A stretch of DNA of 55,976 nt, counting the filler, from Basidioascus undulatus (lineage: Eukaryota), in the NCBI GenBank assembly GCA_000826855.1. It is 4 parts of 4 records of this genome, joined end to end, with 100 filler letters (N's around TTAATTAATTAA, not from the genome) between each part and the next. Parts side by side here need not be neighbours in the genome. Positions count along the whole stretch, not along the records: positions 42,085 to 55,976 come from JTLS01000773.1; 3 more parts are not named here. One strand, written 5' to 3'. Positions 14,042 through 55,976 of this stretch are shown piece by piece. Made by a program: the position numbers and the translations under genes. How positions within the stretch are numbered: the first letter of the stretch is position 1; every line of letters begins with the position of its first letter. The notes under the pieces are model-generated. The model was not told the DNA's origin, did not search any database, and saw nothing but the letters and a program-made list of their open reading frames with translations.

Positions 14042-16159
14042 GGACGAGGAGGCCGATGCGCGCGGCTTCGGTGTATGCCGCTGACGGGGAGGAGGTGCGC
14101 GCGGCGGAGGAGGAGGAGAGTGAGATGAGGAGCGTGAGGTAGAGCCTGTGTAGGGGAATGGACGGGTGCGAGGACGGGGGGAGGTGCGCGCGGAGAGGCT
14201 CCAGATGCGGGTGCAGCGCTGCGAGGGCCGCAGCTGGCTCTGTGGGCCGTTTAACGTTCGTCAGCCCGTTACAATCTCCCTCAACGTCCAGATGATGGAG
14301 GAGGTGGTGCGACGCACTGCTGAACTCCAGTTTCTCAGCCTTCTTCAGTGCCCTCGCCGCTTTCCGCCGCACCTCCTCCGCCTTCTCCCGGTCCACGCCC
14401 GGCAGTATGCGCTCACGCGGATCGTCCTCCCTGGGAACGGGCGAAGGGCCAACGTCAAAGAAGTACCGCTCTTGAAGGTCTTTGCGCTGCTCTTCGTGCG
14501 GGATAGCGAGGTCCACGTAGGATGTGAGGACCTGTGACAAGCAATTTCATGTGTCAGTCTGGCGCATGGCACCAGGAGATGGGAACAGGGACAGGAGAGG
14601 TAGAGGAACGGACCTCGGAGCCGGGCGGGATTTCCTTGATCGCTACCACCTCCATCTTGCTCCCACCGTGCGGGAAGACGACGACCGCGTTGGGGGTGAA
14701 CGAGTGATTGATGAGCGCAACGGTGGGGCAGATGGCAACGCCAATGTTGGACAGGTCGGGGGAGGTGAGAGAAAAAGAGTTGGTCGTGAACTGAGATCTC
14801 ACCCGGGTTCTGAGCATTCCGCACTTCTCGCGACCAGCGAGAGAGCGGTGCGTGCGAACGTACCTTGGCGATGAGGTCTAGCAGTGCGGCTGGGGAGGGC
14901 AATCCTAGAGAGGCAAGGTCCACCGGCGACGAGGCGGATGGGGAGAGGTACCGCGAGAGGAGGAGTGCGAGCTGCGCGTGCGATTGGGAGGTGTTGGGCG
15001 AGAGGGAGGAGCGGTCTGCTAGGCGGTTGTGAGCTTTCACCGCGCACGTTAGACTAATGGGCGGAAACCCGCACGAGATTGCATGTCCTCGACTTCCTTC
15101 CACTGAACATGGTCCTGCACATCAGTCGACGGCTTGAGTGAAACTGAGCCCAGCTTTGAGAGACGCACCCAGGCCGCATCGTGCTTTTCCTTCCCCCACA
15201 CCAGTCGCGCGAGCGCTCTCACAGCCTCTCCAGGCACTCCAGGTACACCCTTGCTCTTGAAGTCCGGATGAAGCGGATCGAAGTTACCGTCCTCGGAGCT
15301 GGGCGGCACCGGCGCCGGCGGTGCGCTGCGAAAGGAGCGGAGAGCTTCGCATTCTGGGCGATGGGCAGCCCAGTCGGCGCGCTGGGCTTCCTTCGATCGC
15401 GTGAGCGACGAAAGCCAAATCAAGTCAGTCTACGACGCGAAAGGCGAAGCGTGAGTGGCTGACTTTCGAGCTGTACTTGACGGTCTGGCATGCCATGCAA
15501 GCGAAGACTTTCGGCTGTGCAGCGGGCGAGGGAGACGTAGGCGGCGGTGCGAGTTCGCCGGGTTCGAGAAAGGTGGTTGAGCAGCGGATGGGAAGGAGGT
15601 GCGAGGAGAGGACGGCCGCATGGGGCGTGAGGGAGAGGAGGGTAGTGCCTGTACGAGACAGGTTGATCAAGTGAGTGTCGAGTGGGAGGCCAGCAGTCTG
15701 GGCATGCATCGTGCAAGCGGGGCAGGTCGCAACATATTTATTCAAATTCGTCGACTAGTCGTCGAGCAGGGGAACAGTAGGATTCCGAATGGAGGGCAAG
15801 GATACAGAAGACACAGACGCACCAGGCTTGATGGCACTCTGCCTGTCCTTCTTTACCCAAACACCCCTCCCCCGGCCTTCCGTCCTCCGCACCTCCAAGT
15901 CCTCCGTCAAACCCCGCAGAAGTTCACCCTCATCCGCCTGCTCAGGCTCGTCCTCCCCCGGTGCTGCAGCAGGCGCCATCTCGACCTCGGGCGTCGCCTC
16001 GAACGCCTGCGCTACCGCCTCGCGGATTTCTGGCGGCGTCTGCTCGGGCACTACGACATTGCCGTAGTCCGATGCTGTTGGGATTGGTTGCTCTGTGAAT
16101 GCTGGCTTGGAGCCGAGGCGGCGGTTGCGCTGAGCTGCGAGGGAGGCGAAGGAAGACAT
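14042..16159 (-). CDS. SMYD-type SET and MYND domain lysine methyltransferase (3' end cut by contig edge)
   Basis: LEVRRTEGRGRGVW (SET-N), a MYND-like insert CMACQTVKYSSK/EAQRADWAAHRPEC, FTTNSFSLTSPDLSNIGVAICPTVALINHSFTPNA, and IKEIPPGSE/VLTSYVD...LQERYFF. Confidence 0.9.
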
Positions 16160-42084: not shown

Positions 42085-42086
42085 CG

Positions 42087-42101
42087 CCGCTCTTCCGATC
42101 T
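42087..42101 (+). other. Illumina adapter remnant CCGCTCTTCCGATCT
   Basis: Matches the 3' end of Illumina paired-end adapter/primer sequence and lies at the very start of the contig. Confidence 0.85.
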
Positions 42102-42705
42102 AGAGGGAGTAGAGGGCGGGGGGCGGGAGGGGAGGCGCGGGGAAGAGGAGGAAGTAGGGATGAGAAGGGGGAGTCCTGCTTCGGTTCTCGCTTTGGGGTT
42201 CATGTCATGTCTTTTAACTCGTGCTTGTGCCTGCGGTTGGCATCGCTGTGGGACCCGTGAATGCAAAATGTGGCGGCCAATTTGGGTAAGGAAGGCTGTC
42301 CACAGGAACGCGGTTTCGAGTGAAATCCGCCTTGCCAGACCAGACGAAGTAGGCGGCTCGCACGCTCGGCTAGCGCGGAGCCGGCAGCACAAGTGCTGTA
42401 CATATGAAGCTGGTCATTCTAGTTCAATTTTCCCATCTATTTCTCTAAATACGTTTTACGCGTGCGTACATTGCGGGCCAAACCGACCGTCGCAGAAAGG
42501 CGAAAGGCGAAAGGAAGGCGAAGTCGCAGTTTCGTGGGAAACCTTGCCTCGCTTAGGTAAGCCCGCCCCTCGCTCAAGAAAAGTCTCTTGCCGTCTTCTC
42601 TCCTCCGTCTCGCTGTGGCTCGCTCTCCTCTCCTCGCTCTCCTCCCCGCCTCCCCCCTCCAGACCCCCCTTCCCACCACCTCCTCCACTGCCACCGACGC
42701 CTGCC

Positions 42706-44880
42706 ATGTCGACTCTCGCGGACCAGCAAGCCACGCAAGACCTGACGATCAAGCCGTCCGCGTCCGCGCCCACGCTCGACACGTCCCAGTGGCCACTCCT
42801 GCTCAAGAACTACGACAAGTTGCTCGTGCGCTCGAGCCACTACACGCCGATCCCCCATGGCATTAGCCCGCTGAAGAGGGATCTGAAGAGCTATATAAAG
42901 TGAGTGGCGCTGCCCAGCCTTACTCGAGTCTTTTGGGGGGCAGTTGGGAAGATGGGAGAGAGGGACAGGGGGAGACAGCGATGGAAGGATGAAAAGCGCT
43001 TCATAAACAAATCAACTAGAAGGCTGTTTATGAGTTCCTTTGGGAACGACGACCTTAATCACGCTTCTGATCATCGCACCTTGTCATCGCACCTTCCTTC
43101 GAACGCATGCTGACTTTCGCCCCCTCCCCCTCTTGCGTCTTGCCGCGTCTGAAGGTGAGTTTTCTTCCTGTTTGTGGTTTGAAGAGAGTTGGTGGCACGG
43201 TGTGGTATGGTGGGAGACGAATTGGAGGACGATAACCTTGCTTAAAAACAAATCAACTAGAAGGCTGTTTATGAGCCCTCGGGCACTGAACATACCTCTT
43301 AATCTGACTCAATCTCTCCCACCCACACTCCTCTCACCCGCTGTCGAAGCGTCCGCTAACTGTCCTACCTGGGCTGGTGTGTATTGGTGATGGCACAGAT
43401 CGGGCGTGATCAACCTCGACAAGCCCTCGAACCCGTCCTCGCACGAGGTCGTCGCGTGGATCCGGCGCATGCTCCGCGTCGAGAAGACCGGCCACTCGGG
43501 GACGCTCGACCCGAAGGTTACGGGGTGCTTGATCGTCTGCATCGACCGCGCGACGAGGCTGGTGAAGAGCCAGCAGGGGGCTGGTGCGTTTTCCTTTCTC
43601 CTCCCTCTTCCCCCTCATTCCCGCCTTGTCCGTTCCTCCGGATCTGAGAAAATGCAAGGGATGCTCACGTTCATCCGCCCGCAGGTAAGGAGTACGTTGC
43701 TGTCCTGCGCCTTCACTCGAAGCTGGACCAGCCCGCCGCTCTCCCCCGGGCGCTGGAGACCCTCACCGGCGCCCTGTTCCAGCGCCCGCCGCTGATCTCC
43801 GCCGTGAAGCGCCAGCTCCGCATCCGGACGGTGCACGAGAGCAAGCTGATCGAGTTCGACAACGAGCGCGGGCTTGCAGTCTTCTGGGTCTCGTGCGAGG
43901 CGGGCACGTACATCCGCACGCTCTGCGTCCACCTCGGCCTCCTCCTCGGCGTCGGCGGCCACATGCAGGAGCTCCGCCGTGTCAGGAGCGGGGCGATGAG
44001 CGAGAATGATGATATTGTGACGATGCATGATGTGCTGGATGCGCAGTGGCTTTATGACCAGACGAGGGACGGTGCGTTGCTCTTTCGTCTTCTGTCCTTC
44101 CCCTCCTTGCCTTTTCGATCCCGCCTTTTGTCGGAGACTGACTTGAGTTCCTTGGATCGCCCGCTCAGAGTCGTACCTCCGCCGCGTCATCCGCCCGCTC
44201 GAGTCCCTGCTCGTCGGCTACAAGCGCATCGTCGTCAAGGACTCGGCCGTCAACGCCATCTGCTACGGCGCGAAGCTCATGATCCCCGGTCTCCTCCGCT
44301 ACGGTTCGTCCTCCATCCCTTCTTCCCTCCTCCCCACCTCCTTGCCACCCCTTCCCTTCCCCTTCCCTCTCTTTTCTTCTGACTTTCGTTTGATGCACAC
44401 AGAGGCCGACATCGAGGTGAACGAGGAGGTCGTGCTGATGACGACCAAGGGCGAGGCGGTCGCGATCGGTGGGTCACACTCCCTCTGTCCTCGCCTTGAA
44501 GATGACGGTGGCTGATGCGGGGAGGGGGGTACTTTGTGTGGTGGTCCAGGTATCGCCCAGATGTCGACCGCCGACCTCTCGTCCTGCGACCACGGCGTCG
44601 TCGCCAAGGTCAAGCGCTGCATCATGGAGCGCGACACATACCCGCGCCGGTGGGGTCTGGGGCCGAAGGGTGCGTCGTCGTCGTCCTCGCTCTTCCCTCC
44701 CCCTCTCCGCATCTCTTCCCTCTCTATAACTCAAGCTGACGAGATGATGTACGCCCGTCCGCAGCCCAAGAAAAGAAGAAGCTCATCAAGGACGGCAAGC
44801 TGGACAAGTTCGGGAAGAAGACGGACGCGACGCCCGACTCGTGGAAGAAGGAGTACGTCGACTACCGGAACGACGAGGAG
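42706..44880 (+). CDS. CBF5: H/ACA snoRNP pseudouridine synthase Cbf5/dyskerin (C-terminal tail missing or garbled after ~44880)
   Basis: [90 protein letters not shown] domain, [19 protein letters not shown]. Confidence 0.97.
42978..43077 (+). ncRNA. Putative intronic box C/D snoRNA, copy 1 (LSU rRNA guide, SNORD95-like element)
   Basis: Terminal stem GCGATG/CATCGC, box C AGGATGA at 42986-42992, antisense element ATCAACTAGAAGGCTGTTT, D' ATGA at 43030-43033, GTTCC-TTTG-GGAAC hairpin, C'-like ACGACGA, box D CTGA at 43067-43070. Confidence 0.8.
43109..43160 (+). other. Putative recursive splice site (zero-length exon) inside CBF5 intron 1
   Basis: Branch point GCTGAC at 43109-43114, a polypyrimidine tract, and the first downstream AG at 43153-43154 immediately followed by GTGAGT at 43155-43160. 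Confidence 0.7.
43209..43323 (+). ncRNA. Putative intronic box C/D snoRNA, copy 2 (paralog of copy 1)
   Basis: Terminal stem GGTGGGAGA/TCTCCCACC plus ATTG/CAAT, box C variant AGGACGA at 43226-43232, identical 30-nt guide plus D' block at 43246-43275, GCCC-TC-GGGC inverted repeat, box D CTGA at 43304-43307. Confidence 0.78.
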
Positions 44881-45764
44881 ATCCCCTCCCACCCCCCGCC
44901 CTCTTCTCCCTCTCCCGCCTCTTCTCCACCCGCTTCGCCTTCGCCTTCTTCCTTGTCGCTTTCCCCTCATACGGCCCACCGCCGACCTTCTTCTTCCCCG
45001 CCCCACCCGCCTTCGCAGCCTCTTCGGCCGCGCGCTTCTTCTTCAGCAAGCGGCCTGACGAGGGCGGCGGGGACGGTGCCCGCTCGGGCGGAGGGAGGGA
45101 GGAGGAGGGCGCGGAGGGGTCGAAGTCTTCGATGATCGTTACGGTCGCGTGGTGCTCGTCGTCCGAGTAGGCTTCTTCTTTCTCCTTCTCGGAATCGGAC
45201 GCCTCCGCGTCTGCCGCAGAAACAGGGTCGATAAAGGCGCTTTTGCTAGACCCTACCCAGCCGTCCCGACACTGATTAGCCACGCTGGGAGTGAACGAAC
45301 GAGAGAGGGAGGAGAAGAAACGCACCCGCCAGCGCCCCATACTGCATCTCCACCTCCCGATAATTCTCCTCCGCCTGCTCTTTCCGTGCCTTCCTCGTCT
45401 ATCCATCCCTCCCCGTCCACATCAGCCCCACCACCCGTCACCTCCTCCCCCCAGCCAACCCGCCGTCCCAGACTCACCTCCGCCTTCTCCTTCCTCTGCT
45501 CCTCCTTATCCCTTGCCTTCGCCTTCGCTCTGCGCTCCTCGATCCGCGCTTGCTTGCGCTTCCGGAAGCCCGTCAAGTACTCGCTAGCACCCCCACCCAA
45601 CGTTCTTCTCAGCATCCTAAACCCGGGAGCAAGACACAGGGCCCAGGGACGCACCGCCGCGCATCGTCGTCAAACAGGACTTCCTCCACCCGTCCCTGGC
45701 GCGCACGCTTCTTCGCGCGCACGGCGGCGTGCTGGGTGGACAGGAGCTGGGAGTTTGTGGGCAT
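44786..45764 (-). CDS. RRP17: Nucleolar protein Rrp17/NOL12 (Nop25 domain); true stop codon uncertain
   Basis: MPTNSQLL...[30 protein letters not shown]...[19 protein letters not shown]...YEGKATRK. Confidence 0.88.
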
Positions 45765-46294
45765 GTTGGAGTAGTTATGTGTGTGGAATAGAATGTGTGG
45801 ATGGAGGTGGGTGTGGGAGGTGGGAGGCGACGAGGATTATTGAAGCCGATTCCCACGCCCTTCGGCGGCAAGGGAGTTCATTCTGAGACGCGAGACGGGG
45901 GCGGCGAGCGAGAAGACGCTCGCACGCTTCCTTTGTGCTAACGCTCATCTTACACTACTCGGCGGTGGCGAACTCGGATTTGGCTTTGTGGTTACGTATT
46001 GGATCGCAGGGACCAGGTGAATATTGTGGTTTGCAGAGTCTGGGTGGGTCGGTGGGTGGGCGAAGTCGCTGATACGTTCTGGGATTGGGGGTGCAGCCTG
46101 GTTATTGAGGACCCGCTGCGATTTGCGTTGGTCGGAGCCAAGAGCGTGGTAGTATTTGGGTGGATATTGGAGTAGGTGAGTTGGCGTTTCTGCACTGGGT
46201 GGCAGTGCGACGGTCTGGATGGCGTGGGCACGTTCGGGCGGCGGACTGACAGCTCTGCCACACCCGCAGAAGGCCACACCGTCTTTCAAGCACC

Positions 46295-48619
46295 ATGGTC
46301 CTCCCTCGACCAGCCCGCCTCGGGCGACTGAGCGCTCTGCGGTCCCGCGCCGCCCCGTCCCTGCTCGCCCCATCCCGACCGACCCCCACACCACAAACCC
46401 TCGCACCCCCGACCCTTCCCGCCGCCGCTTCCGCCTTCTCCACCTCCCCCTCCCCCGCCGCCGGCTCCCGGCGCGACGGGCCCACCTTCACCGAGTTTCT
46501 CAAAATTCTCTTCAAGGGCACGCCCAAGAAGCCCACTTCCTCCGAGCGCCTCTCAGCCTTCACGGCAGCCGCCACCTCCTCCTCTCCCGACCGGCGGCTC
46601 ATCTCCCAAACCTACCTCGAGCTCAAGACCCTCCCCTCCCCACCCGCGCCGCTCCCGGACGTCCTGCGCAATGCAATGCGCGTGCTCTGCGTCTCTCCAC
46701 ACAAGCGGGACCTGCGCGTCCTGCAAGACATGTTCGACGACCTCCACTCGCTCTGGGCGATCCCCTACACGCTGGACGACGCGCACGCGCTCCTGCGCGG
46801 GCTAGCACGGCACGCGCGCGCGCGCGAGACGCTGCGCGTCCTTCGCGCGCTGGAGGATGGCGTGTACGGCGAGCATGTCCGCCCGGGGCTGATGGACTAC
46901 AATGTCGCGCTGGCTGCGTTTGCGCGCGCGGCGGACGCGGACGGCGCGCTGGAGGTGTGGGCGCTGCTGCGCGCGCATGGGGGGAGCCCGGACCGCTTCA
47001 GCTTTAACTCGCTCCTCAGCGCGCTGTTCCGCGCGGGGCGCGGCGTGGACGTGCCTGCCGTGCTGGAGGAGATGGAGCGCGCGGGGGTGAGGAGGGATTT
47101 GGTCACGGCAACGACGATCCTGGATGGGTTTGTCAAAGCGGAGGAGTGGGAGAAGGCGGGCGAGGCGGAGGCGCTCGTGCGCGAGCTCGGGCGGGACGGG
47201 CTGGATGCCCGCGCGTGGGCGGGCCTCATCGGACTCGCCGCGCGCAGGGACGGGTTCGATGCTGGCCTGGCGACGCTCCGGGAGTGCGTGAATGCCGGGG
47301 GGGATGTCAACGAGGTCACGCTCGCGACGCTCCTCCGCGTTGCGCCCCCGCTCACGACCTACGCCGAGGCGCGTGCACTCCTCGACGACCTCGCGTCCGA
47401 GACGGGCGTGGAGCCCGACCTCCGCGCGCATTCCATCCTGCTCAACAACCTCCTCTCGACCTCCTCCCTCTCCGCCGCCCTAGAGCTCTACGATTCCTCC
47501 CCTTACCCGCGGGACCTCCCGCTCATCCAGCCCCTCATGCATGCTCTCACATCCAACCCTGCAACGCGGGACCTGCCCCGCGCGCTCAAGATCTACGGTG
47601 ACCTGGACGCGTCCTCGAACCCGCCCGATGCACCCCTCTTCCGCACGCTGCTCCATGCGTGCGCGGCGGAGGGGAACGTCGGCGCCGCCGTGCGCCTCCT
47701 GGGGGACATGAAGGCCGCGGGCGTCTCGGTCGAGCCCGGCCAGGTCGTGAGCACCGCGATCGCGCTCATGCGCGCGAGCAGGGACCACGCGCAGGCGTTT
47801 CAAGCCTACGCATACATACTGAACCTCAACCGCGTCGGCGTGGACGCAGACGGGTTCGCCGCGCTCATCTCCGCGTTCTCGAACCTCTCCTTCACGCGCC
47901 TTTCCCCATCCCCCACCGCGCCATCCAAACCCGTCCGAGGCACGGCTCCGCCGATCCTCTTCGCTGAGATCCTGAAGGACATGCGGGCGGCGGGGCACCC
48001 CCCGACCGCGCGGACATACACCGTGCTCCTGGACTACTACGCGCGCGTGCGGGACCGGGAAGCAGTGCGCAAGGTGCACGCGCGCCTGACGATGGACCTC
48101 TCCCTCCGGCCCGACACGCACCTCCACAACGCGCTCATGAACGCGTACAACCGGTCCGGCGAGCCGGCGCGCGCCCTCGCTCTCTGGGACACGCTCCTCC
48201 TCTCGAACGCGTTCGACCACGCGAGCGTGAGCATCGCGCTTGACGCGTGCGGGCGCGGGGGCGCGACGGCGGGCTTGGGCAAGGGGAGGGGGATCGTGGA
48301 GACCCTGGGGGCGAGGAGGTGGAGGATGAATAGGAGGAACTGGGAGAGCTGGGTGGAGGCGCTTGTGAGGCTCGGCAGGCCTGCGGACGCGGAGGAGGTG
48401 TTGAGAGTGAGAATGCCTAGGGAGGGGTGGGAGGTCGATGAGAATGGCTTGAGGACCCTGTTGAGGATGGTTAGGGCCTTTGGGGGAAGGGGGTTGGATG
48501 AGCTGAAGGATAGGTTGAGGGAGGCGTACCCGGAGCTGTGGGAGAGCGTGAAGGACATTGGGGAGAGGGAGAGGGCGGTGGAGCCGGAGGAAGCGAGGAG
48601 ACGCGGAGATGCACGATGA
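46295..48619 (+). CDS. Intronless pentatricopeptide-repeat (PPR) protein, 774 aa, probably mitochondrial
   Basis: Presequence-like N-terminus and PPR motifs: PDRFSFNSLLSALFRAG, RDLVTATTILDGFVKA, PDAPLFRTLLHACAAEG, PTARTYTVLLDYYAR, PDTHLHNALMNAYNRSG. Confidence 0.92.
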   Translation: MVLPRPARLGRLSALRSRAAPSLLAPSRPTPTPQTLAPPTLPAAASAFSTSPSPAAGSRRDGPTFTEFLKILFKGTPKKPTSSERLSAFTAAATSSSPDRRLISQTYLELKTLPSPPAPLPDVLRNAMRVLCVSPHKRDLRVLQDMFDDLHSLWAIPYTLDDAHALLRGLARHARARETLRVLRALEDGVYGEHVRPGLMDYNVALAAFARAADADGALEVWALLRAHGGSPDRFSFNSLLSALFRAGRGVDVPAVLEEMERAGVRRDLVTATTILDGFVKAEEWEKAGEAEALVRELGRDGLDARAWAGLIGLAARRDGFDAGLATLRECVNAGGDVNEVTLATLLRVAPPLTTYAEARALLDDLASETGVEPDLRAHSILLNNLLSTSSLSAALELYDSSPYPRDLPLIQPLMHALTSNPATRDLPRALKIYGDLDASSNPPDAPLFRTLLHACAAEGNVGAAVRLLGDMKAAGVSVEPGQVVSTAIALMRASRDHAQAFQAYAYILNLNRVGVDADGFAALISAFSNLSFTRLSPSPTAPSKPVRGTAPPILFAEILKDMRAAGHPPTARTYTVLLDYYARVRDREAVRKVHARLTMDLSLRPDTHLHNALMNAYNRSGEPARALALWDTLLLSNAFDHASVSIALDACGRGGATAGLGKGRGIVETLGARRWRMNRRNWESWVEALVRLGRPADAEEVLRVRMPREGWEVDENGLRTLLRMVRAFGGRGLDELKDRLREAYPELWESVKDIGERERAVEPEEARRRGDAR

Positions 48620-49509
48620 GCTTGCACGCGCTTGAATGATATTTGATAAGGCTCGGAAGGGGGTGATCAAGTTCCCAGAAAGCTGCGTGCCGGCGGGCAT
48701 TGGGCAGGGCGTGGCGGCTGCGTTGTCGCATCGCCGTCTCGTGCACGTCCCCCCGTACGCCCCCATATTTCGACTCCCCTGGCCGGCCATCTCTCTGCAA
48801 CTGGCCCAGAAGTTTTTGCTCAAATATCCCGAAAGAGTGCATCTCGAGGGTTCTCACCCGCACATTCGCTTCAAGGCGTGAAGCGGCTCGGCGTCCGCGA
48901 GCCTGAACATGTCCGCTCGCCCGGCGCCTCAGTATCAGATAACTTACCGCTTGAGAAAGCTGGAATTTTCTGATGCAAACTGTCGGAAAGGACGCGTGCT
49001 TGTGTTGACGAGGTCGTTCTTCGGAATCTGCGTGGAAAGTGCACCCAAGGCACATGCGGCGCTGTGAAGAGCAGCTGAAAGAGCTATCGCCATAATCCTC
49101 TTCGAGATCTCAAAGCCTCTTTATTGTTTTTACACATCTTGTTTTACAAGGCGACTTGAGGAATACAGACAATGAACCTGTTGCCGGCATGGTATTTGCG
49201 ATCCCACACTGCAGCTGTGCCTCTTGCAGTTCTTTCCGTTGACACACTTTTCTCTGTGTCCTTCCGCTTGGTTATGCTGAGAACTACAGGAAGAGGTACC
49301 CAAAACAGCCCCCGGCGGAATGGAGTATTGTCGCGCTCCATCGCAAGGAGGTACGCGCCAAACTCCCCCGTCGAGTTTATAGGGTCACGGGTCTCCAAAA
49401 GTGTGCGTAATTGATCGATGATAAGTCTGCAGAACCAATTTAAAGTGTATGTTGAACATCAAACCGCTGTGAGGAGGTTGGATTCCTCCCAACGTCACGG
49501 TCTACGCGG

Positions 49510-51122
49510 GTGACATGCTCGGCCCGGGAGGCGGCGGCGACGCCTCTTTCCTTCCTACCATCACCTACTACTCACTGCCTTCCAACACTGACCCAGCCCT
49601 TCAGTCGTCATGGTGTCCAGACTATCAAGAAGTTCTTCGAGACCCCTGACCCCCGTATTTCAATCCCTGACGGCGTGAAGCACCTCGCCGTCTATGAGCC
49701 CGACTGTGCCCTACTCCCAAACAATACCTCAGGCGTCCTGGATAGCACTTCGGGTCCGGCGGGTTTCGCACTCAACGAAATCTACCGGCAGATGCTCGTC
49801 GTTCTTTACAATGGGACTGGCCGCATCGGGGTGGCACGCATTGCAGAGGCCACTCGCATCAACAAGGACGTCTTGGTCACCTTCTTCCGAGGCCCGGGGA
49901 CTCCCAGCCTCGTTTGCATCTCACCATGTGGACCGCATGGAGTGGCTGGAACAGTACTTGAGGGGATGGGCGAAGATGCAGGCGCTGCAGTTGATGGGAC
50001 TGTCGGAACAGTGCGTTGGCTACCATTTCCACTTGCTCGCCTGCCTTCGATGCTCACAAGATGGGCGGAGACAGCACCGTGAAAACCGCACAGCGCAACC
50101 TCCTCTGGCTTTAGTCCCGACCCTCAACCACCTCACGTGCCCTCCACGACATCGCATAGGATACGGTCCCCTTCCACACTTTTCCGCCTGTCTTCCCTGC
50201 TTTCGCATCTGCCCAGGCCCGGCTTCGCGCATCCCGCGTCACCCGAGCTGCGATACAGGGCAAAATTTAGCTGGGTCGGCGTGACTATGAGGGGATCTTT
50301 CGGCAGCTTGAGATGGCTATTCGAGGTGGATAATTACTCTCGTGATCCAGTGTCAGCTCGTACTCACTGCGGGTGCTTGTTGTCCAGAGCAACCCAAGCT
50401 GTGCGCCTACACGGTCTCTCAGGACCCTGACGAACTGTTGATTCCTGATAGCTCGGTTTCTGATCCATTCGAGCTGGTGCGCCACCCTTTCATTCTCTTT
50501 TACCGGAATCGACATCATGTTGGTCTCGTCTAGGCTGACCGTGTACTGCTCAACAGCATATCATTGGGCAGGGGCGCCTTACGCTTCCCGCAGCCCTTCA
50601 ACACGTCGTCCACGTTCATCAAAACCTGCTTCACAACGACTTTTACAAGCTGCTACACTCTATGATATACTCATTGCCGCTTTCAGCCATCCGGGTTACC
50701 TAGTAGATTCCGCGTATGTCGCTGTCTCCCCTTTTCATCTTTCCGTCGGCCCTGCATTGAGAGCAAATTACATAGGTCCTCTGCAGCCGCTGTAATCGGA
50801 TGTCGAAAGACAGAACGGTACTCTCACTTCAAACGCTACCACTTAATCTGCACTGCCCCCGCAGGTCCCCGTCCTCGCATCCCTTATCTACCTCAACGCC
50901 TACACCTACCTCAGCAGCCGAGCCGTCATCTTGCAGTGCGTCCAGATCAGCCTAATTTCCCCATCTACAGCACCATCCACTCACAAACTTTTAACATCTA
51001 GAACAAACGGCCAAACACCTATCTCCGCCATCGCCGGCCTGCGCCAGCACGGCGGCACGCACCCGTCTCTCCGCGGCGCGTACGCCTGGCCGCGCAGCGA
51101 GGCGGAGATGGATGCAATTTAG
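49510..51122 (+). CDS. Unidentified spliced gene or genes (possibly decayed)
   Basis: Globular-looking exon (KKFFETPDPRISIPDG...SGPAGFALNEIYRQMLVVLYNGTGRIGVA...CISPCGPHG) with a GTGCGT donor at about 50011, and a terminal exon after CCCGCAG at about 50864. No coherent gene model was obtained. Confidence 0.4.
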
Positions 51123-51210
51123 GGAGGACACAATATGGAATCGGGGGGCCATGGGGCGGGCCTTATGGGGCGGAATCAGGCAGTTGGAAGGATTAAAGGG
51201 AGGTGAAATA

Positions 51211-51370
51211 AAGTTTCGAGACAATTCTGCCGATGGCAGTTGTAATTTGCCGGGGCATCTTCTGCCCGTGTCGGGCTCAACGGAGGTTTAGAAAGAAAGT
51301 CTCGCGGGATGCAGAGTGCTACGTCGTTCGGCAAACTACAACTGCCATCGGCAGAATTGTCGCGAAACTT
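51211..51370. repeat. 160-bp inverted-repeat (hairpin/MITE-like) element with 42-bp arms
   Basis: 51211-51252 is the reverse complement of 51329-51370 with 2 mismatches, and each arm contains the palindrome CTGCC-GAT-GGCAG. Confidence 0.9.
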
Positions 51371-52579
51371 CCTATCGGAAGACGCGGCGTGGACGCATAC
51401 CGCGCTGCACAATTGTAGTACGGATGGGCAAGTCGCGCCGTGCAGTGAACAGTACCGCTCCATACCCTTCTACGACACTGATCATTGACTGGGCCAATTT
51501 CCAAGACGCGCGAGGATAAAATCTCGGAGTGGTTTGCTATTTGCTAAGGAGGAGCGGTTGTGTATCGAATGCTGCATTGCGCATCCCGCATCGACTTCAA
51601 GACTGCTTCGATTGGTAGGCCGTCCCTCGCCACGGCCGATTCTTGGACTTTAAAATACGTCTTAAACCGAAGAATTCACCTACCAAGGCCAAGCTTCGGC
51701 CCTTAGCGCTGGGCTATTAGCATTTTGTGAATTGACGTGATTCTAGCTTGCAGTGCTGTGACCTGCTTAGCTCATGACAATGTGCCACTGTGCCTTTTGC
51801 TCTGGCCGGTTTTATGTGCAAATACAACTCACACAGCGGGCTGTAGAAAAGATTCGACATCTTGCGCATTCCCAGACATCCACAGAAAATATGAAGCAGA
51901 GTTTTAGGCCAGGTAGACACCCTTGGCCTGCTCCTCTTCTTAGAACATCGGTGCCGTCCTTTATCACCTGCTCATCTACGACTGGAAAAGACTCACCAAA
52001 ACAAACAGATATGGCAAACATGAGGAGAGATTAAGTGGGTAAGTGGTAATCAGTCTGAGAAATGTCATTGAGGATTATAGGAACTTCGCAACGTGAACAC
52101 ACATTAAGTTTATAGTCTGAGTAGCCCGTCGCTAGTGGATGTTGAAGAGTAATGCAGCCGGAGGGTCGCGCAACCTCAGACTGCAACTTGCGACGCAATT
52201 CCGCAACCTTTGAGCCCGGGGTGTTGGTGTTCTTTTTGCTTAGAATGCAAATTCCCTGCCTCCGAGATTGTTTTCATGCACACTTATGCAAGCTGCTACC
52301 AGCTGCCAGTGGCCACGGATGGCTGTGCCAGCCAGAGTGTCGTCGGTGATCGCACGATGGTGACACAGGCGAACAGAATGCTAATATTCTTTCGAAGCAA
52401 GAGTAAGAATTTTGTATGAGCTTCCGCTTGATTGCTTGCACTGCAATGCAACGCAGTCCACAACAGCCCAAAACTTTTGGCATGGCGGCCCGTCTCGTCC
52501 TTTTCATTCCTTTTGCCGTCACCCACAAGCGCCACGAGTATTTGCTGGATAATTATTACTCTTACCACGTCGCTAAACC

Positions 52580-53347
52580 ATGTCCACACTTCGCAAAGAC
52601 TACAAGTTTCCCAACGACCTATGCAGCCACTGGGACAAGCCAAAACAGCCGAATGGCCCAAAGCACAGGATCTGCGGACGCTGTCAGCGAAGTTCGTCAG
52701 CCCGTCCCTCCGCTGTGCTGACTATCTGGCACTTTCTGCAGGTCAATACTGCTCTAAAGAGTGTCAGCACCTGGCATGGCCTGCCCACATAGCCCTCTGC
52801 GACGCAAATGTCTCCCTCTTCACCTCCACAACCGCCTCACCGAAGACCTTTGGCAGTCATCAGGGCGCTGGAGGCAACGCAGGCGGCCCACGCTGACGAC
52901 TTCACCTGCTCTGTATTTCGGGCTTTACAGCTGTACCTCGACGGCTTCAACGGCGCCCGCCACGCTCTGCGCATCCGCGTCTGCCCATCAGCCTTTACTC
53001 CCCCGCGCTTCGAACTTATCGATTACACGGTGGTGCCTTTGATGAAGGTGAAGGATGAGTATGGGGAGACGAGTGGTACAATTATGGAGTCGTTCGAGCG
53101 TTATCATGTAGATGGTACGTATCTCGTGATCTTGGGGGTTGGGGAGGTCCAGGGACTGATACGTAAACGATGGGTCAGAGGTAGCTAAAGGTGGGCAACG
53201 CATGGCATTGCTCATGCTCCAGGCCAGAACCGTGGTCCAAGTTATGACCGTAGTTCCGGGGAGGTATTTCTTCCGTCAGTACGTCCCTGTGTCGGAGCAC
53301 TGGTGGGACACTCTGCGGGATGTGCTGGACGGGCCAGCGGGCGAGCG
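52580..53347 (+). pseudogene. MYND zinc-finger protein gene, frameshifted
   Basis: MSTLRK...LCSHWDK...ICGRCQR/SQYCSKECQHLAWPAHIALC, then a frameshift near 52845 into LAVIRALEATQAAHADDF...RFEL. Canonical introns are present. Confidence 0.75.
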
Positions 53348-53961
53348 GTGAGTGCGACTGCTTATTCCCGTAAGGAACATGGGTTGACGATTTCCCCGGA
53401 GATTAGGAAAGGGCTGGGGTGGGGACTGCGACCAGACATCCGTACCTGCTGTTCAATGCATCTCACACGTGATTCCAGCTTGTGCTCCAACGTTTGTCAA
53501 TAGTAATGGGTGAAGAGAGGCTTCCAATTTGTATGTATTGTATATATGGTAATCATGTTTTTTTTTGTAATCCGGAAGTAATGCTCAGTAGTATTCAACG
53601 GGTGACTTGGTCTCCGACTACAAGCGAGGTTCTTACAACCGCTGCAGTGACATTCCAGCCTGCTGTATCAGGTTGAAGTATCTGAACGGCCTCAATCACC
53701 AACACTAACGGTATGAATCAACAATCGTGTTTTGTTACAGACGACAATTGGAAACAAGAGGGAAGGAACTCCACAAGTGGAAGGTACTTAAATACGCTTT
53801 ACACAGACTACTGGTGCTCTTTAGATTGAAAGGTTTATGCAGAGTCATTCTTATTTTGGAATTTCCACAAGGATGAATCTAAATGGACCTTGTTTCAAGA
53901 ATCACTAATGTTAAGGGCTGAGATCTGCTTATTAAATTTATTAGTGGAAAGAAACACTAAT

Positions 53962-54035
53962 GGCCGCTTAACTCAGTTGGTTAGAGTGTGGAGCTAATAA
54001 CTCCAAAGTCGCAGGTTCGACCCCTGCAGTGGCCA
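53962..54035 (+). tRNA. tRNA-Ile(AAU), intronless
   Basis: Acceptor GGCCGCT/AGTGGCC-A, D arm ACTC..GAGT, anticodon stem TGGAG/CTCCA with loop CT-AAT-AA, T arm GCAGG-TTCGACC-CCTGC. Confidence 0.96.
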
Positions 54036-54039
54036 GCTG

Positions 54040-54048
54040 TTTTATTTT
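54040..54048 (+). terminator. Pol III oligo-T terminator of tRNA-Ile
   Basis: TTTTATTTT a few nucleotides downstream of the tRNA. Confidence 0.7.
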
Positions 54049-54431
54049 GGAACAATTTTGCACCTTTCAAAATATCACTGGCACCTACCCACACTCGCTA
54101 CCAAACCTGCCATGGGTGGTGCATTCTTTTACCGACCATCACTGAAAACCGTACACAGCGATGACTGTCCAGCACACAAAGCCCAGCTGCTCCAAGGCAG
54201 CCAGCAGTCAATTTGGTTCAGGTTTCCAATCTTGATTTAACCATCCAACGGTCAAAACGCGGAGCTGTATACAAAAAAGGCACGTTACAGGGTAGTTGAG
54301 CAGCATAGCGTCAGTGAGCACAACAACATTCCGTAGACAAACCCATCACGACCTATCGTGAACTGCCAGCAAAGTCCCCAAGGAACGGAAAAGAAAAGTC
54401 CAAAACAAACAGAGGCGGACATGCCTGCCGC

Positions 54432-55976
54432 TCAGTCAACCCCGAACCCCGAAACCTTCTTCATCCACCGTTTCATGAGCACGTCCAGGTCAGCCAGAAC
54501 GAATCGGCACACGACGCTGCCGAAGAAGTCGGCAGCGCGGCGGAGGCGCGCGTCGATCTGCGCGCGCGTGTCGGGCGGGAGACGCGCGTAGGAGGACGGG
54601 GATGAGGCCGGCGGGTGCAGGCTCACGAGATGCTGATCTGCGAGGGCGAGAGGAGTAGATGAACAGGTGGGGAGGGGAGAGGAGGGATGGGGACGGACCG
54701 AGTGTTTGGGCTGCTTGGAAGACGCGCGTGAGGGTGTAGACGTAGGCTGGTAGGGAGTCGCTGCAGTGTAGGAGACTGGTCAGACAGAGTGGGAGGATAG
54801 CGAAAGGCGAGCAGAGTAGAAAGAGGGCAACGTACTCTTTACGTCCATGATGATGCGAGACACCCAGCGACCTAGCCATCTTCGACGTCCACACGCCCAT
54901 CTGCCAGCGCTACGTCAGTACCCACTTAAGTTCCCTTCACAGAGCGCCCTGCAGTTGACAGAAAGACTCACCGAACCCGCCTTCCTCCCCTTGACCGTCT
55001 CGTACCCCAACTTCTTCGCAATCTGATCCTGCGCGTCGTCGAGCCCCGCACAAAACTCCGCCAACACGCGCGCAAAGTGCCCCGCAGCCTGCTCCATCCG
55101 CAAGCTCGTCGGTTCTTCCCCTTCCTTCCCCTCGCGGAGAAGCCGCTCGCCCGCGCGCTCGACCTCGTGCAGCCCGACGAGAACCGCCTCGAGCGTGCGG
55201 ACTTTCACGTCGAGATAGTCGAGCTTCACCGCCCCGCCCGCGCGCCACATCTCCGCGCTGATGTACAGCCTCCGCGTGAGGTACCCGCCCGCGAGCATGG
55301 ACGCGCGCAGCTGGCGCATGAGGTGGAACGGCCGGCGGAACGCGGGCGAGGGCGGGGGCCCGTACGCTGCTGGGGCGTGCAGGGGTGCGTCTAGCCCTTG
55401 CCCTAGCCCAATGGGGTGGACGAACAGCCCGGCGGGGGCGTCTAATGCGGGGGTCAGAGCTACGAAGGACGGCGTGAACGGCGTCCAGAGCAGTCCGGTG
55501 GCGGGCGGCGGCAGAGCTCGTTCTGCGTCGTTGGGAGTCCGCAACGAGCGGAAGGTGGGGACGGGCGGGGGCGCGCCGACGGGCAAGGGCGACGAGATCG
55601 AGCCTCGCAGACTCGGACGGCGGGCCGGGTTGGAGAGTGCGCGCATGCGTCCGCCTGGCGTAGGGTTGTTGCGGAAGAAGGACGAGGGCGCGTGGGTGAC
55701 GGTGCGCGACGGCGAGGTCGTGCGGAGGGTCTCGTCGGATGCCGCGCGGCTGATGGTGAGGGTGGAGGTGGGCGATGAGGAGGACAGCGAAGGGCGAGAG
55801 TAGCGAAGAGCAGGTGGGGGCGTTCCGTTCGGCCTCTCCATCTGGCTCTGCCGCCGCTGCGAAATCGTCCCCTCCCTCACGCTCGGCGAGACGAGCAGCT
55901 GCCGCGCACGCTGTGCCGCCGCAGCGGTCCCCACCAATCCCGCCGTTTCCGGCAGCGCCGGCAGCGCTGGCTCGCC
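54432..55976 (-). CDS. C-terminal part of a conserved fungal protein, usually annotated as MIT-domain-containing; 5' end outside the window
   Basis: S/P-rich linker, RRPFHLMRQLRASMLAGGYLTRRLYISAEMW..GG..KL...DVKVR, and terminal LRRAADFFGSVVCRFVLADLDVLMKRWMKK. The MIT domain itself is not visible here. Confidence 0.7.

Follow-up and report, generated by a model that had tools for sequence, protein, structure and literature searches.

The first intron of the CBF5 gene of Basidioascus undulatus, 499 nucleotides (nt) long, probably comprises two complete spliceosomal introns of 255 and 244 nt that abut with zero exon bases between them, each carrying one of two related candidate small nucleolar RNAs (snoRNAs) of the box C/D type. 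The gene lies on record JTLS01000773.1 (positions 42,085 to 55,976) within a stretch of 55,976 nt, filler included, from assembly GCA_000826855.1, in which four parts of the genome are joined end to end. We refer to this whole stretch as the window. An earlier sequence-only reading had proposed recursive splicing of this intron, and its coordinates, exon ends and branch, acceptor and donor positions all proved correct. Of its interpretation, the two-unit anatomy, which is far from chance, and the regeneration of the donor held up. Duplication of the whole intron went unsupported, and a simple doubling of snoRNA output and the premise that such splicing is known mainly from very long animal introns did not hold.

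The first intron of CBF5

The host gene encodes Cbf5/dyskerin. Pfam places a DKCLD domain in exon 1 and TruB_N and TruB_C_2 in exon 3, and the alignment to the solved yeast Cbf5 (3u28_A) is contiguous over the junction of exons 1 and 2. Exon 1 matches residues 2-57 (E 2.6e-22) and exon 2 matches residues 59-119 (E 2.1e-34). Residue 57 corresponds to the last full codon of exon 1, which ends in ..TATATAAA at 42899 and adjoins the GTGAGT donor at 42900-42905, and residue 59 corresponds to the first full codon of exon 2. Residue 58 is filled by the split codon AA/A. Thus no extra exon is needed, as had been claimed, and all 499 nt are intronic. Two open reading frames (ORFs) that lie in or run into the intron, 43040-43387 (+) and 43337-43657 (-), have no Pfam match.

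The gene model holds 401 codons of open frame. Its remaining five introns measure 101, 97, 99, 81 and 95 nt, and the first is about five times that length, in keeping with the earlier description of it as several times longer than the others. Comparisons among introns rest on the six of CBF5; an automatic catalogue for the window was too noisy to use (61 overlapping candidates). A minus-strand ORF (44786-45406, 206 amino acids) overlaps the 3′ region of CBF5, where the frame is still open after 44880.

All six splice signals expected of two introns occur inside the 499 nt; they follow one another in the correct order and are of consensus grade. In the first unit a GCTGAC branch motif (43109-43114, putative branch A43113) is followed by 38 nt lacking AG and then by AAG at 43152-43154. 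In the second, GCTAAC (43355-43360, putative branch A43359) leads to a CAG acceptor at 43396-43398, and here too the stretch from branch site to acceptor is free of AG. Motifs of the CTGAC type are also found in CBF5 introns 3, 4 and 6. The final 30 nt of the first unit are 80% pyrimidine, the top value among the introns of the gene. Its acceptor directly abuts a perfect donor at 43155, identical to the real donor at 42900, and this divides the intron into units of 255 and 244 nt with one C/D-like RNA apiece, as the sequence-only reading had it. The same reading had noted that removing the first unit recreates the original junction, and on the sequence it does: excision would leave AAA/GTGAGT, whose six intron bases are those of the original donor.

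Chance seldom produces this arrangement. We defined a strict motif as CTRAY, then 10-50 nt without AG, then AG/GTRNGT. It occurs once in the 112 kb of the window (both strands), at the 43155 site. When the intron interior was shuffled 20000 times with dinucleotides preserved, the motif appeared in 42 shuffles (0.2%). AGGTRNGT by itself is much commoner, with 20 sites in the window (both strands) and 698 hits in 20000 shuffles, so the signal rests in the combination and not in AG/GT as such. Two ordinary CBF5 acceptors precede exons that start with GT (43682-43690, CAG/GTAAGG; 44547-44555, CAG/GTATCG), neither with the full donor consensus; normal CBF5 exons thus commonly begin at a bare AG/GT. 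The frequency of AGGTRNGT is what can be said for regarding AG/GTGAGT and the branch-like motif as a coincidence of no consequence in an ordinary long intron. We consider that very improbable, since 112 kb contain the full motif just once and 0.2% of shuffles reach it, even before its position is counted: the acceptor and donor fall exactly in the spacer separating the two snoRNAs, between units of matching layout.

The two units are built alike. The distance from donor to C box is 86 nt in the first and 71 nt in the second, that from D box to branch A is 43 and 52 nt, and that from branch A to the AG is 41 and 39 nt. If the 499 nt were removed as a single intron, snoRNA 1 would sit 289 nt from the branch site used.

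Two box C/D-like RNAs

The 5′ end of a box C/D snoRNA has a C box (RUGAUGA) nearby, and the 3′ end a D box (CUGA). Both RNAs in the intron contain an exact CTGA, and their C boxes depart from the consensus, fitting it at six of seven positions in the first unit and five of seven in the second. In each, a terminal stem joins the C and D boxes: 7 bp in snoRNA 1 (42978-42984 with 43071-43077), and a long, interrupted stem in snoRNA 2 (about 43199-43225 with 43308-43331). A short hairpin follows the C′ box in both, formed from differing sequences. We call them snoRNAs because of their boxes, stems, size and intronic position, and not through a family match. Other candidates from the C/D scan were rejected, namely those at 512-2363 (tandem-repeat DNA), 44438 (a coding exon) and 10911-10800 on the minus strand.

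The two RNAs have in common a block of 30 identical nt that spans the putative first guide and the D′/C′ boxes (Table 1). Alignment above the level of shuffles is confined to about 50 nt, the half that runs from the C box through this guide to D′/C′. Elsewhere it is at shuffle level, with z-scores of 1.75 for the 5′ flanks, 0.54 for the 3′ flanks and 1.57 for the second guides. Similarity restricted to the 5′ half points to paralogues that would have a common first guide and differing second guides. The earlier idea of a tandem duplication of the whole intron gets no support from the rest of the units, and the related idea of doubled snoRNA output is too simple, because only the first guide is common and the sequences upstream of box D differ.

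Table 1. Features of CBF5 and its first intron; positions are those of the window.
Feature	Position	Strand	Details
CBF5 exon 1	42706..42899	+	ATG at 42706; terminal 2 bases start a Lys codon; Pfam DKCLD
Unit 1, complete intron-like, 255 nt	42900..43154	+	Donor GTGAGT, branch GCTGAC, pyrimidine tract, acceptor AAG
Box C/D-like snoRNA 1	42978..43077	+	C box AGGATGA 42986-92, D box CTGA 43067-70; motif scan and fold
30-nt block identical in both snoRNAs, copy 1	43005..43034	+	Putative first guide and D′/C′; z 16 against shuffles
Putative zero-length exon	43153..43160	+	Acceptor AG 43153-54 abuts donor GTGAGT 43155-60
Unit 2, complete intron-like, 244 nt	43155..43398	+	Donor GTGAGT, branch GCTAAC, acceptor CAG
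Box C/D-like snoRNA 2	43199..43331	+	C-like box AGGACGA 43226-32, D box CTGA 43304-07; motif scan and folds
30-nt block identical in both snoRNAs, copy 2	43246..43275	+	Identical to 43005-34
CBF5 exon 2	43399..43583	+	Opens with third base of the Lys codon, then SGVINLDKP...

The internal sites could also be a relic. In that case the second unit (or the first) would hold a decaying snoRNA copy from an old duplication, yielding no functional RNA but still spliced out, as an essential gene would require. The C box of the second RNA, AGGACGA, would suit such decay, as would the lack of a match in Rfam. Yet the two copies still agree at every base of the 30-nt block, although their flanks and second guides have drifted to chance level, which argues for selection, or gene conversion, acting on both. 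The D box, the terminal stem and the hairpin after C′, the last from differing sequences, are likewise retained in both copies. We regard a relic as quite unlikely.

Splicing of the two units

On the reading that we favor, the donor at 42900 would use the first branch site, A43113, and the next AG (43154). Exon 1 would be joined to base 43155, which rebuilds an AAA/GTGAGT donor, and this donor would then be spliced via A43359 to exon 2 at 43399. This order would be expected because the nearest complete signals after 42900 are the internal ones and the introns of this gene are about 80-100 nt long; the opposite order is possible too on sequence grounds. Each snoRNA would end up in a separate lariat, as far upstream of the branch site as is usual, to be freed by debranching and exonuclease trimming, and the mRNA and protein would be unaltered. 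Two snoRNAs that share a lariat would not come apart by exonuclease trimming alone, which gives a splice junction between them a functional rationale.

Placement of this kind has precedents. Going by the passages of the cited papers drawn on here and below, 45 of 55 C/D snoRNAs in Neurospora crassa are intronic, in a one-per-intron mode, and the distance of a snoRNA to the 3′ splice site matters for its processing (PMC2780460). One snoRNA per intron is a stated rule in animals too (PMC11028025). The units of CBF5 intron 1 would follow the same rule if both internal sites are used. Work attributed to Hirose and Steitz in 2001 reportedly places the mammalian optimum upstream of the 3′ splice site by some 70-80 nt.

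Several observations weigh against this reading. The C boxes of both RNAs are off-consensus, that of the second more so, and no Rfam snoRNA family matches either RNA, be it at the gathering score or with E allowed up to 10. The acceptor inside the intron reads AAG, whereas the exon-flanking acceptors of CBF5 are CAG in six of six cases, and the 41 and 39 nt from branch A to AG exceed the 17-34 nt of introns 2-6. Folds of the whole intron and of each unit are not stabler than those of shuffles (z = -0.01, -1.0 and +0.72). The flanks, of which the 5′ ones are purine-rich, pair no better with each other inside a unit than they do across units or with shuffled partners. The idea of two separately folding modules, suggested by a minimum-free-energy drawing, was dropped for this reason, as neither the fold z-scores nor the flank-pairing comparison gives it statistical support. 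In the predicted fold, the pyrimidine tract of the first unit is also bound up in pairing with the purine-rich 5′ flank, and the site could be masked by this.

The weaker acceptor and the possible masking would both suit removal of the 499 nt in one step via A43359, the internal sites being used rarely or not at all. An endonuclease would then part the two snoRNAs by a cut in the spacer, or they would remain joined as an RNA of about 350 nt resembling the snoRNA-ended long noncoding RNAs (sno-lncRNAs). Polycistronic snoRNAs cut by endonucleases occur in yeast and plants, which also counts in favor of this alternative. Organization of snoRNAs in clusters is mentioned in PMC2780460, and animal introns with two snoRNAs yield intron-derived lncRNAs with snoRNA ends (PMC11028025). 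Against one-step removal, a branch site, the best pyrimidine tract of the gene, a first AG and a perfect donor co-occur in just 42 of 20000 shuffles, and here they do so exactly between the snoRNAs. It would also leave snoRNA 1 at the distance from its branch site given above. Moreover, with introns 2-6 measuring 81-101 nt, short units are normally recognized in this fungus, and under intron-definition splicing the nearest full set of signals should be recognized. We therefore think one-step removal unlikely, though less so than the other two alternatives, and infer that the internal sites are probably used.

Known systems, relatives and origin

The internal site has the features that define a zero-length exon: an AG that abuts a GT, a predicted branch site for each half, and regeneration of the donor upon excision of the first. 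The sequence-only reading had taken ratchet-point splicing to be known mainly from very long animal introns, a view now outdated by fungal cases (PMC3596301; PMC5033589; 10.1101/226894; 10.1101/224170).

One close system is that of the fungal “intron-intron” hosts, which are polycistronic. Juxtaposed snoRNA introns have been described for the snR57-55-61 and snR41-70-51 clusters of Candida, Debaryomyces, Yarrowia and Pezizomycotina (PMC3596301; PMC5033589). For such introns Luo et al. found expressed sequence tags (18, 14 and 10 of 42 products) and reverse transcription PCR (RT-PCR) results that fit stepwise 5′-to-3′ removal, and they also raised the use of alternative acceptors as a rival reading (PMC3596301). 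Donovan et al. (2016) described recursive splicing with an “exon size of zero” in the snR57-55-61 cluster of the Candida parapsilosis group and Debaryomyces (PMC5033589). As in these hosts, the CBF5 intron has one C/D-like snoRNA per short intron-like unit, a zero exon and a first splice that would rebuild the donor. They differ in being non-coding and in being explained by the loss of small internal exons, whereas CBF5 is essential and protein-coding. Unlike theirs, the snoRNAs of CBF5 appear to be paralogues of each other.

Two further fungal cases were demonstrated on RNA. In Schizosaccharomyces pombe, SPNCRNA.445, the host of snoRNA61, has a zero-length exon in a 336-nt intron, identified by spliceosome profiling and RT-PCR (bioRxiv 10.1101/226894). 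It resembles the CBF5 case as a snoRNA-linked fungal intron of a few hundred nt with a 3′ splice site directly beside a 5′ splice site, but its host is non-coding and its splicing was shown on RNA, whereas the CBF5 case is known from sequence alone. In Cryptococcus neoformans, a zero-nucleotide exon parts a 375-nt intron of BOT1 (CNAG_07884) into 210 and 165 nt, and recursive splicing was demonstrated by profiling of junctions, branches and 3′ ends (bioRxiv 10.1101/224170). Like CBF5, BOT1 is an essential protein-coding gene of a basidiomycete; its intron falls into halves of roughly 200 nt at a zero-nucleotide exon, as proposed for CBF5. The passages of that paper drawn on here mention no snoRNA in the BOT1 intron, in contrast to the one in each half of the CBF5 intron.

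Other classes fit less well. Animal recursive (ratchet-point) splicing acts in very long introns of Drosophila and vertebrates (cited in PMC5126111, 10.1101/226894 and 10.1101/224170). There too an AG/GT regenerates the 5′ splice site after the first ligation. Those introns span tens of kilobases, often involve a recursive-splicing exon (RS-exon) and are proposed to serve long-intron removal, whereas the CBF5 intron has 499 nt and its internal site would serve to separate snoRNAs; we did not assign it to this class on account of its length. The stwintrons (spliceosomal twin introns) of filamentous fungi consist of an external intron whose donor, branch site or acceptor is broken up by an internal one (PMC9024468). 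Two consecutive reactions clear one intervening sequence of a fungal gene there, as proposed here. Each CBF5 unit, by contrast, has its own signals intact and none is split by the other, which rules out a stwintron. Animal sno-lncRNAs similarly have two snoRNAs between one pair of exons (PMC11028025), but there the snoRNAs are not separated by a splice junction and their spacer persists as lncRNA, whereas the spacer in CBF5 holds a complete acceptor and donor.

In the literature searched, partly by passages of papers, we found no report of two abutting snoRNA introns inside a fungal protein-coding gene, and none of snoRNAs in a CBF5 intron of Pucciniomycotina. The mechanism itself is already known in fungi; the present case would combine an essential coding host with one snoRNA per half.

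We looked for relatives with a 19-mer from the core common to both snoRNAs, and it had no match in the collection of genome contigs or in that of viral contigs. One metagenome contig matched it without C/D context and without CBF5, and we took this match as chance. A protein scan of the genome contigs with exon 2 returned 80 loci, 79 of which were taken as archaeal cbf5 on their labels and their 58-69% identity. The other, a eukaryote-type CBF5 on PBDU01000015.1 (2700-3400), is 92% identical to exon 2 and has no intron homologous to that at 42899/43399. This contig is labelled as a Methanobacteriota metagenome-assembled genome (MAG), yet its eukaryote-type CBF5 has GT-AG introns near the 5′ end, and this suggests that a contig of eukaryotic origin was binned with an archaeal MAG.

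Elsewhere in the window, positions 1-2450 have a GC content of 42-50%, compared with 54-59% further in, and hold tandem-repeat arrays with periods of 12, 20, 31, 48, 83 and others. A satellite, scaffold-end or subtelomere-like in kind, may make up this region, in which the C/D-box scan gave false matches, or assembly may have joined in foreign sequence. A tRNA gene lies at 53962-54035 (+) (Rfam RF00005, 65 bits). In the SMYD gene, at about 15391-15470 (-), a candidate intron end, GCTCAC...AAG, precedes the exon EAQRADW..HRPEC; its AAG is the putative acceptor that the sequence-only reading had thought to be used.

As to how the two CBF5 units arose, the contiguity of the protein across the site means that exon loss cannot be the origin. 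Three others suit the data equally well. The whole intron may have been duplicated long ago, its flanks since drifting to chance level; the snoRNA alone may have been duplicated, with new splice sites arising afterwards; or an intron bearing a snoRNA may have been inserted at an existing intron's border. For snoRNA introns, Luo et al. described an “excised and inserted” pattern (PMC3596301). A fuller scenario, which we put forward as possible but doubtful, is that an essential coding gene uses a zero-length exon to give each of two paralogous snoRNAs its own lariat, and that this arose not by exon loss but by gain of a whole snoRNA-bearing intron exactly at the border of an existing intron, through exact duplication or the “excised and inserted” route (PMC3596301). 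In that event, introns carrying snoRNAs would be units able to multiply inside coding genes while leaving the protein untouched.

If the internal sites are used, annotation here and in related genomes should record two introns in place of one, and two snoRNAs between one pair of coding exons would be no exception to the rule of one snoRNA per intron. What has been a peculiarity of non-coding snoRNA hosts in fungi would extend to an essential coding gene. Two box C/D guides would also be coupled to expression of the H/ACA pseudouridine synthase; coupling of snoRNAs to the expression of ribosome-biogenesis genes is common and not surprising in itself. As the exon-loss explanation does not apply, the case is relevant to the gain of introns that bear snoRNAs.

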